Below, piece after piece: positions 1 through 3,000 of a stretch of DNA of 7,705 nt; position 1 is the first letter of the stretch; each line of letters starts with the position of its first letter. Location: positions 1 to 7,705 of the IMG/VR virus record IMGVR_UViG_2690316318_000009; one strand, written 5' to 3'. The position numbers are program-made. The stretch comes from a virus. Lineage: Duplodnaviria; Heunggongvirae; Uroviricota; Caudoviricetes.

Positions 1-3000
1 GACGAAAAGCCGCAGGTACAACAGGTAGCGCAGATCATCAACGGTGTGTTCAGCCAGTTACTGGCAACTTTCCCGGCGAGTCTGGCTAACCGTGACCAGA
101 ACGAACTGAACGAAATCCGCCGCCAGTGGGTTCTGGCTTTCCGGGAAAACGGGATCACCTCGATGGAACAGGTTAACGCAGGAATGCGCGTAGCCCGTCG
201 GCAGAATCGACCATTTCTTCCATCACCCGGGCAGTTTGTTGCATGGTGCCGGGAAGAAGCATCCGTTATCGCCGGACTGCCAAACGTCAGCGAGCTGGTT
301 GATATGGTTTACGAGTATTGCCGGAAGCGTGGCCTGTATCCGGATGCAGAGTCTTATCCGTGGAAATCAAACGCGCACTACTGGCTGGTTACCAATCTGT
401 ACCAGAACATGCGGGCCAATGCGTTGACTGACGCGGAATTACGGCGCAAGGCTGCCGATGAACTGACCTGTATGACAGCGCGAATTAACTGTGGTGAGAC
501 TATACCTGAACCAGTAAAACAACTTCCTGTCATGGGCGGCAGACCTCTAAATCGAGCACAGGCTCTGGCGAAGATCGCAGAAATTAAAGCTAAGTTCGGA
601 CTGAAAGGAGCAAGTGTATGACGGGCAAAGAGGCAATTATTCATTACCTCGGAACGCATAAGAGCTTCTGTGCACAGGACGTTTCCGCGCTAACAGGCGC
701 AACAGTAACCAGCATAAATCAGGCCGCGGCTAAAATGGCACGGGCAGGTCTTCTGGTTATCGAAGGTAAGGTCTGGCGAACGGTGTATTACCGGTTCGCT
801 ACCAGAGAAGAACGGGAAGGAAAGGTGAGCACGAACCTGATTTTTAAGGAGTGTCGCCAGAGTGCCGCGATGAAACGGGTATTGGCGGTATATGGAGTTA
901 AAAGATGACCATCTACATCACTGAGCTAATAACAGGCCTGCTGGTAATCGCAGGCCTTTTTATTTGGGGGAGAGGGAAGTCATGAAAAAACTAACCTTTG
1001 AAATTCGATCTCCGGCACATCAGCAAAACGCTATTCACGCAGTACAGCAAATTCTTCCAGACCCAACCAAACCAATCGTAGTAACCATTCAGGAACGCAA
1101 CCGCAGCTTAGACCAAAACCGAAAGCTTTGGGCTTGCCTTGGTGACGTCTCTCGTCAGGTTGAATGGCATGGTCGCTGGCTGGATGCAGAAAGCTGGAAG
1201 TGCGTTTTTACAGCAGCATTAAAGCAGCAGGACGTTGTTCCTAACCTTGCCGGGAATGGCTTTGTGGTAATAGGCCAGTCAACCAGCAGGATGCGTGTAA
1301 GCGAATTTGCGGAGCTATTAGAGCTTATACAGGCATTCGGTACAGAGCGTGGCGTTAAGTGGTCAGACGAAGCGCGACTGGCTCTGGAGTGGAAAGCGCG
1401 ATGGGGAGATCGGGCTGCATGACTATCAAATCAAATACGCCAGCACACGACAAGGACTGCTGGCAAACGCCGCTTTGGCTTTTTGATGCACTGGATATTG
1501 AGTTTGGATTCTGGCTGGATTCGGCAGCGAGCGACAAAAATGCTCTGTGCGCTCACTGGCTAACTGAGGCCGACGACGCGCTCAATTCTGAGTGGGTAAG
1601 CCACGGTGCAATCTGGAATAACCCACCGTACAGCAATATCAGGCCGTGGGTGGAAAAAGCCGCTGAGCAGTGCATACAACAGCGACAGACGGTAGTGATG
1701 CTTGTGCCAGAGGATATGTCTGTCGGATGGTTCAGCAAGGCTCTGGAGAGTGTTGACGAAGTTCGTATTATCACTGATGGACGGATTAATTTTATCGAAC
1801 CATCGACGGGGTTGGAGAAGAAGGGAAACAGCAAAGGCTCAATGCTGCTGATTTGGCGACCGTTCATCAGTCCTCGACGAATGTTTACTACCGTATCCAA
1901 AGCGGCATTGATGGCGATCGGGCAGGGCGTCAGGAGGGCAGCATGAGACGACAGCGACGAAGTATCACCGACATCATCTGCGAAAACTGCAAATACCTTC
2001 CAACGAAACGCTCCAGAAATAAACCCAAGCCAATCCCAAAAGAATCTGACGTAAAAACCTTCAACTACACGGCTCACCTGTGGGATATCCGGTGGCTAAG
2101 ACATCGTGCGAGGAAATGACAATGGATTATTCACAGTTAAGTGATTTTGAAATTAACAGACGAGTATGTGAGGCTTTAGATATGGAGGAGTATTTCTTCA
2201 TACCTGATGACGAAGCAGATTTCGATTCGGAGATCCCCACTGACGAAAGAGGTCCTGTTTGGCAGACGTCAAAAAGGGATATTAATGGCTTCCGTGCTTC
2301 AAACGGAAATTGCTTCAATCCTTGCAACAACCCGGCGGACGCAAAGCCTATTATCGTAGAGAACAGAATTGGCATTATTCCTGCGCCAGAAAATGGATTA
2401 TGGAAGGCAGCGCATAGAAAGATTGGTAACGATAATACTCCATACCATATGACTCAAAATGTAAATCCACTCCGCGCCGCCATGATTGTCTTTCTGATGA
2501 TGCAGGACGCCAATAATGCTTAGCCCATCCCAATCCCTTCAATACCAGAAAGAAAGCGTCGAGCGGGCTTTAACGTGCACTAACTGCGGTCAGAAGCTGC
2601 ATGTGCTGGAAGTTCACGTGTGCTCAGATTGCTGCGCAGAACTGATGAGCGATCCGAATAGCTCAATGTACGAGGAAGAAGACGATGGCTAAACCAGCGC
2701 GAAGACGATGTAAAAACGAAGAATGTCGGGAATGGTTTCACCCTGCATTCGCTAATCAGTGGTGGTGCTCTCCAGAGTGTGGAACAAAGATAGCACTCGA
2801 ACGACGAAGCAAAGAACGCGAAAAAGCGGAAAAAGCAGCAGAGAAGAAACGACGACGAGAGGAGCAGAAACAGAAAGATAAACTGAAGATTCGAAAACTC
2901 GCCTTAAAGCCCCGCAGTTACTGGATTAAACAAGCCCAACAAGCCGTAAACGCCTTCATCAGAGAAAGAGACCGCGACTTACCATGTATCTCGTGCGGAA

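Follow-up and report, generated by a model that had tools for sequence, protein, structure and literature searches.

Why should a lambdoid phage whose host already methylates GATC carry a DNA adenine methyltransferase of its own, and which sequence does that enzyme modify? The question is raised by a stretch of caudoviricete virus DNA of 7,705 nucleotides (nt) (IMG/VR record IMGVR_UViG_2690316318_000009, positions 1 to 7,705; hereafter the window), in which a phage-type dam gene at 1419–1946 on the forward strand lies between ninB and ninE, where phage lambda has ninC and ninD. We propose that this gene very probably encodes a functional, single-domain, S-adenosylmethionine (SAM)-dependent GATC N6-adenine methyltransferase of the T1/HP1/VT2 type, which replaced ninC/ninD, would depend on N for its expression from pR and would top up Gm6ATC on phage DNA.

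An orphan phage Dam identical to the VT2-Sakai enzyme

The open reading frame (ORF) runs from ATG at 1419 to TGA at 1944–1946 (528 nt) and encodes 175 amino acids (aa). Its product matched PF05869 "Dam" in the Pfam scan (E-value 6.4e-65; 218.4 bits against a cut-off of 28.1; profile positions 1–167 of 169) and, among NCBIfam models, the equivalog TIGR01712 "phage N-6-adenine-methyltransferase" (9.7e-80; 265.9 bits against a cut-off of 97.05; positions 1–165 of 165), scores that are far beyond chance, and it is a member of PHROG 111. PADLOC classed it as an orphan methyltransferase (oMTase), its best matches being orphan-methyltransferase models. A first interpretation made from the DNA sequence alone (the sequence-only reading) had called the gene an orphan N6-adenine DNA methyltransferase of 175 aa with an NPPY motif and had proposed a profile search against DNA-methyltransferase families as a check; that search returned full-length matches to both families above their cut-offs, and Pfam, NCBIfam, PHROG and PADLOC all agree with the call. 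The claim that no restriction endonuclease adjoins the gene also stands, as Pfam assigned none to the genes neighbouring dam in the window and no PADLOC restriction-endonuclease model matched any neighbour scanned. The gene is not accompanied by the adjoining cognate endonuclease that marks a type II restriction-modification system. PF05869 was the sole family found in the Pfam scan, with no match to PF02086 (MethyltransfD12, alpha-class Dam) or to PF05063 (MT-A70 or beta-class Dam-like, the type of Tn1549 M.EfaBMDam), whose members form a separate group of phage GATC methylases (PMC7556043). The ST131 prophage enzyme M.EcoMIV, called a "Dam homolog", belongs to PF02086 and was set aside as irrelevant to the window protein.

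The protein is identical at 175 of 175 residues to orf32 of the Stx2 phage VT2-Sakai (NP_050531.1). This is the sole annotated methyltransferase in the VT2-Sakai record; no other candidate for M.EcoVT2Dam is annotated there, the unassigned orf4 being a DUF551 protein, and we infer with some firmness that the VT-2 dam gene that was cloned is orf32. M.EcoVT2Dam "is known to target 5'-GATC-3'" according to PMC6602927, which cites Radlinska & Bujnicki (2001), and VT-2 is listed among the phages for which Dam-like activity was shown, only the T-even enzymes being homologous to cellular Dam (PMC7139368). By identity to M.EcoVT2Dam, the reported target of the window enzyme would be GATC, and the statement in the sequence-only reading that its target specificity is unknown was mistaken in the light of these reports. 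The two enzymes also share the length of the gene (528 nt) and its ninB-dam-ninE position; only the surrounding phage differs, the window being lambda/434-like (P, ren, ninF/G/I, LpxR) and not built on an Stx-phage backbone. The "dam" coding sequence of phage Phi24B likewise has 528 nt and encodes exactly the NP_050531.1 sequence (100% identity); prophage induction alters its expression significantly (PMC3342100). HK97, 933V and other phages carry a Dam that is 99% identical to the window and VT2-Sakai protein.

The reading frame of dam is open back to a GTG at 1359, which would give a 195-aa form, and the depositors of phage Sf101 annotated this GTG start. The ATG at 1419 is nevertheless the supported start, because TIGR01712 aligns from residue 2, because homologues from other genera start at the equivalent position, because the identical 528-nt gene is annotated in the RefSeq VT2-Sakai record, and because the ATGA coupling that it creates with ninB is typical of nin regions (PMC8022706). 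An antisense ORF at 1553–2077 (174 aa) had no family match above noise and was treated as a shadow ORF.

Catalytic motifs, fold and distant relatives

Conservation was assessed in an alignment of 52 diverse family members that are 31–67% identical to the window protein. D34, N68, P70, R122 and F125 are invariant and T17, P18, A37, W59, P69, Y71, L95, W104 and N137 are conserved in at least 90% of the sequences; the window copy is full length and retains every family-invariant residue. Motif IV, the NPPY of the amino-methyltransferase catalytic loop, occupies aa 68–71 (AAC CCA CCG TAC, 1620–1631), and is preceded by a WxTP motif (W15-Q-T17-P18) and by a degenerate motif I (L33-D34-S-A-A37) within the segment FWLDSAAS (aa 31–38, 1509–1532; Asp34 at 1518–1520), the presumed SAM-binding strand and loop. 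The sequence-only reading had named the lack of a SAM-binding motif as an observation that would overturn it. The canonical FxGxG motif is indeed absent from the protein, but the degenerate LDxAA with its invariant Asp34 and a methyltransferase fold are present, and in substance the objection fails.

An AlphaFold2 model computed with 42 homologues (mean predicted local distance difference test, pLDDT, 88.2; predicted template modelling score, pTM, 0.87) consists of a single alpha/beta domain, in which strand 31–36 is the first core strand and strand 64–68 leads into the NPPY loop. In this model the F31–S38 element (F31-W-L-D34-S-A-A-S38) is likely to be the degenerate motif I. Foldseek agrees with a class-I SAM-dependent methyltransferase fold; as modelled, the protein is a small single-domain member of this class with no separate target-recognition domain, and its closest fold matches are PCIF1 and the gamma-class N6-adenine enzymes of the M.TaqI/EcoKI group. 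The structural match to PCIF1 is consistent with published relationships, because the methyltransferase domain of the DIRS1 retrotransposon is detected by PF05869 (PMC3783388) and, in the classification of Iyer et al. (PMC4738411), DIRS1 shares a clade of the M.EcoKI/M.TaqI group with PCIF1. No solved structure with detectable sequence similarity to the Dam family was found in the PDB, whether searched with the single protein or with a profile of the 52 sequences; matches to Med31 ("WCNPPYS") and to SdiA were dismissed as chance. The way in which a protein of ~170 aa, lacking any recognition domain, attains GATC specificity is a point of modest value in this family, which lacks a solved structure and is tied by its fold to eukaryotic PCIF1 and to the methyltransferase domains of DIRS1 retrotransposons.

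Comparison with better-known methyltransferases sets the window protein apart from most of them. E. coli Dam, T4 Dam and DpnM (PF02086) have no detectable sequence homology to it and differ in motif order and tetrapeptide, and the separate DNA-recognition domain of alpha-class Dam is missing from it. The catalytic tetrapeptide of cellular Dam is DPPY, as against NPPY here. M.TaqI and the type I HsdM proteins, which belong to restriction-modification systems, recognise their targets through a large domain of their own or a separate S subunit, whereas the window Dam is a bare catalytic domain of 175 aa; PCIF1/CAPAM is a eukaryotic capped-mRNA m6Am enzyme of ~700 aa with WW and helical domains and ~15% identity to the window protein.

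The closer likeness is to the founding members of PF05869/TIGR01712, T1 Dam (M.EcoT1Dam; 32% identical) and HP1 Dam (36% identical), which share the WxTP, LDxAA, NPPYS and R/F motifs. Both are orphans like the window enzyme, although their genomic contexts differ, and T1 Dam departs from it further by ~45 additional aa at the N terminus and 14 aa inserted internally. T1 Dam has been described as Gm6ATC-modifying (PMC4996451) and HP1 Dam is listed as a phage Dam-like gene (PMC7556043). Among lactococcal phages, a methylase of the 936 group is 31% identical to the window Dam, and M.Phi93DAM was found to methylate GATC by SMRT sequencing (single molecule, real time) and by digestion with DpnI/DpnII; the authors saw in it "only a single conserved MTase motif", namely NPPY, and likewise noted the absence of a canonical SAM motif (PMC4190342).

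Operon position, proposed role and its rivals

The assignment of dam to the ninC/ninD slot was confirmed by blastn against lambda. The window is 95.6% identical to lambda over P-ren-ninB (1–1422), ending at the ninB stop codon (lambda 41084); no similarity to lambda is found after 1422 until it returns at 1950, which corresponds to lambda 42097 inside ninE, at 98.2% identity. Because lambda homology breaks at the ninB stop and resumes inside ninE, dam is a clean cassette replacement of ninC/ninD. Upstream lies the NinB/Orf recombination mediator (982–1422, forward strand; PF05772, 1.1e-54; PHROG 72) and downstream NinE (1943–2119, forward strand; PF05322, 4.4e-44), whose gene is 98.2% identical to lambda ninE at the nucleotide level. 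The ATGA overlaps that the sequence-only reading saw on both sides of dam are present: the ninB stop (TGA 1420–1422) overlaps the dam start (ATG 1419–1421) at 1419–1422, and the dam stop (TGA 1944–1946) overlaps the ninE start (ATG 1943–1945) at 1943–1946, such junctions being a hallmark of nin regions (PMC8022706). A Shine-Dalgarno-like GGGGAG at 1403–1408, within the 3' end of ninB and ~10 nt before the ATG, may serve dam, and an AGGAGG at 1932–1937, within the 3' end of dam and 5 nt before the ninE ATG, is the putative Shine-Dalgarno sequence of ninE.

A GC-rich hairpin of 8 pairs followed by a T-run, TTTTATTT, lies on the forward strand at 934–967 between ren and ninB and is the only site resembling an intrinsic terminator that the terminator scan found in window 600–2600. 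We take this hairpin, from what is established for lambda, to stand at the position of tR2. Read-through of this tR2-like terminator would need N antitermination. The position of dam downstream of it agrees with the delayed-early rightward operon to which the sequence-only reading had assigned the gene. The promoter search returned no convincing promoter belonging to dam itself: the one weak –35/–10 match lies inside the gene, and the region has fewer such matches than shuffled sequence. No Rfam family was found in window 800–2600.

Taken together with the operon layout, the proposed role can be set out as follows. Transcription from pR would reach the gene only once N permits read-through of the tR2-like terminator, the ATGA junctions would let it be translated serially with ninB and ninE, and Dam would be made during lytic development, alongside the products of the other nin genes. 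The enzyme would add Gm6ATC to phage DNA that replicates too fast for the host Dam; progeny and recombining genomes would thereby be fully methylated, and full methylation may protect them against nucleases that cut unmethylated or hemimethylated sites containing GATC, such as DpnII/MboI-type enzymes or MutH-directed cleavage. This top-up role is proposed because the virion DNA of lambda and P22 is under-methylated by the host Dam (PMC8022706).

Several points weigh against a functional GATC methylase with this role. Besides the missing FxGxG motif, the activity, expression and SAM binding of this particular copy are argued from comparison and from the literature, and the GATC specificity comes through secondary citations and through our equation of the cloned gene with orf32. 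The original source of that specificity is said to be Radlinska and Bujnicki (2001), known here through secondary citation, and the enzyme was reportedly cloned in that year. With 17 GATC sites, compared with the ~29 that base composition predicts, the window shows no enrichment; this count says nothing about function. The host is ordinarily Dam+, and what a phage would gain from a second GATC methylase is not obvious; Radlinska's group themselves describe the function of phage Dam methyltransferases as "still not well understood" (PMC7556043).

The most probable of the rivals, although we regard it as unlikely, concerns specificity: the enzyme may be a relaxed adenine methylase that prefers GATC and, when abundant in the lytic cycle, modifies many related sites, giving broad anti-restriction and not Dam mimicry. 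By analogy this is supported by M.Btr190III, a relative 35% identical to T1 Dam, which methylates GATC with "significant off-target activity" when cloned, and also by the small size of the window Dam (just 175 aa, a single domain in the model, with no target-recognition domain) and by the Lar genes near dam in VT2-Sakai and Providencia prophages. However, the reports on M.EcoVT2Dam, T1 Dam and M.Phi93DAM describe plain GATC specificity, and the native Bibersteinia genomes, in which M.Btr190III is masked by the host Dam, show no off-target methylation; the off-target activity of the cloned enzyme may be an artefact of over-expression. A more speculative variant, to which we give little credence, is that in lytic growth the bare 175-aa domain methylates broader adenine contexts or the single-stranded intermediates of recombination and replication; were it true, Dam would give general protection from restriction, or would guard Red/NinB recombination intermediates against breakage directed by MutH. 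Methylation of RNA or of single-stranded nucleic acid, as might be imagined from the best structural match, PCIF1/CAPAM, is very unlikely, since members of the Dam family have demonstrated activity on DNA, and we hardly entertain it.

The remaining alternatives concern when, or whether, the enzyme acts. It seems improbable that Dam is an epigenetic or lysogenic-conversion factor of the lysogen, supplementing the host Dam, stabilising lysogeny or altering host gene expression. Murphy et al. (2008), known through a paper that cites it, reportedly found that stable lysogeny of 933W needs the host Dam, which would count for such a role, as would the detection of the identical protein or gene in lysogen cultures of Phi24B, whose authors speculated that it supplements the host Dam (PMC3342100). 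Yet such signals can come from spontaneously induced cells; dam is preceded by pR and the tR2-like terminator, and the search gave it no convincing separate promoter; GATC is already saturated by the host Dam; and the enzyme of the Bibersteinia prophage appeared not to contribute. The methylome comparison of a lysogen with a deletion mutant, which had been suggested as a check, would probably be uninformative, because the host Dam masks GATC, as was pointed out for M.Btr190III, and a delayed-early gene should be largely silent in a repressed prophage. Nor do we expect dam to be an inactive relic of a decaying prophage, a reading that has next to no probability in our judgement: the databases hold many truncated or chimeric dam copies and the window shows mosaic decay elsewhere, for example in a remnant of the 5' end of lambda Q, but the window gene is full length with its invariant residues intact, VT2-Sakai and Phi24B, which are viable phages, have an identical one, and at least 201 phage records have a copy at ≥99% identity. 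A GATC methylase of lytic growth is the reading that we retain.

Distribution of the gene and mosaic surroundings

The gene had been described as common and not novel, and the survey bears this out. It is present in 1566 of 5426 complete E. coli genomes (~29%), at 95–99% nucleotide identity and in up to five copies each; the best identity of the window gene to these copies is ~98.9%, and among the matches listed the E. coli copies are annotated between NinB and NinE. A Dam match was found in 2134 phage records, those at ≥99% identity included, and 8784 cluster representatives belong to the family at E ≤ 1e-3. Routine annotation pipelines give the gene its correct name; with this distribution and its identity to a known enzyme it matters little as a discovery, and why lambdoid phages that infect Dam+ hosts should bring along a GATC methylase is a residual question of modest value.

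Outside E. coli the position of the gene varies. A homologue from Yersinia (68% identical) lies in an early-left operon near an exonuclease and an integrase, and one from Providencia (66% identical) is located between replication genes and Q, close to a Lar gene; NinB adjoins neither of these prophage homologues, nor does an endonuclease. An obligatory functional coupling of Dam with NinB in recombination was considered and rejected, as the adjacency is not kept in these homologues. Genes for Lar restriction alleviation often lie near this Dam family, as in the Providencia prophages and in VT2-Sakai (L001, 3793–4035), and in Providencia, where these features lie at about 5440–5630 and 7890–8534 of L012/L013/L014, a second methyltransferase (PF01555, N6_N4) directly follows Q, which hints at a clustering of anti-restriction functions in the early regions of Dam-carrying prophages. 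Some database proteins (P0002, P0005, P0011, P0013, P0038 and P0087) have the Dam domain fused to NinE, CII, RusA, NinB, holin or Q domains; they are probably deletion or frameshift chimeras from decaying prophages, or gene-calling artefacts, and not real multidomain enzymes.

The rest of the window is a mosaic of lambda-like and foreign segments. It opens with replication protein P (46–621; Pfam), followed by Ren (618–908), which has no Pfam match and was assigned from its 95.6% identity to lambda and from the Ren annotation in matching phages. Downstream of ninE come NinX (2122–2523; PF10765) and, all assigned by Pfam, NinF (2516–2692), NinG (2685–3296) and a NinI-type phosphatase (3293–3958). 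Relative to lambda, ninX is inserted between ninE and ninF (2117–2549) and ninH is missing between ninG and ninI (3296–3302); this gain and this loss are further cassette swaps at gene junctions of the operon.

Homology to lambda then runs ~70 nt beyond the ninI stop (3955–4025) into the 5' end of the lambda-type Q gene, window 3302–4025 corresponding to lambda 43233–43956 and lambda Q starting at 43886. Window 3955–4025 is a remnant of the displaced Q, and the working antiterminator is of the unrelated PF06530 type (5706–6074; Pfam); phage 434 records annotate an "antiterminator-like protein" at the spot of the remnant. Between ninI and Q, on the opposite strand, an island of low GC content (0.30–0.41, compared with ~0.50 in the nin genes) carries an LpxR lipid A deacylase gene (4170–5129, reverse strand, 319 aa; PF09982, 6.8e-40), likely a moron that modifies the lipopolysaccharide of the host. 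Phage 434 and many E. coli prophages share this LpxR arrangement.

The final segment (~6062–7705) has no match beyond ~6640 in the complete E. coli genomes or phage records searched. It holds small ORFs at 6139–6390, 6333–6545 and 6662–6871 and, on the reverse strand at 6887–7426, a 179-aa ORF that matches DUF2441 weakly (1.4e-6) and nothing in PADLOC or NCBIfam; lying downstream of Q, it may be a moron not yet characterised or defence cargo.

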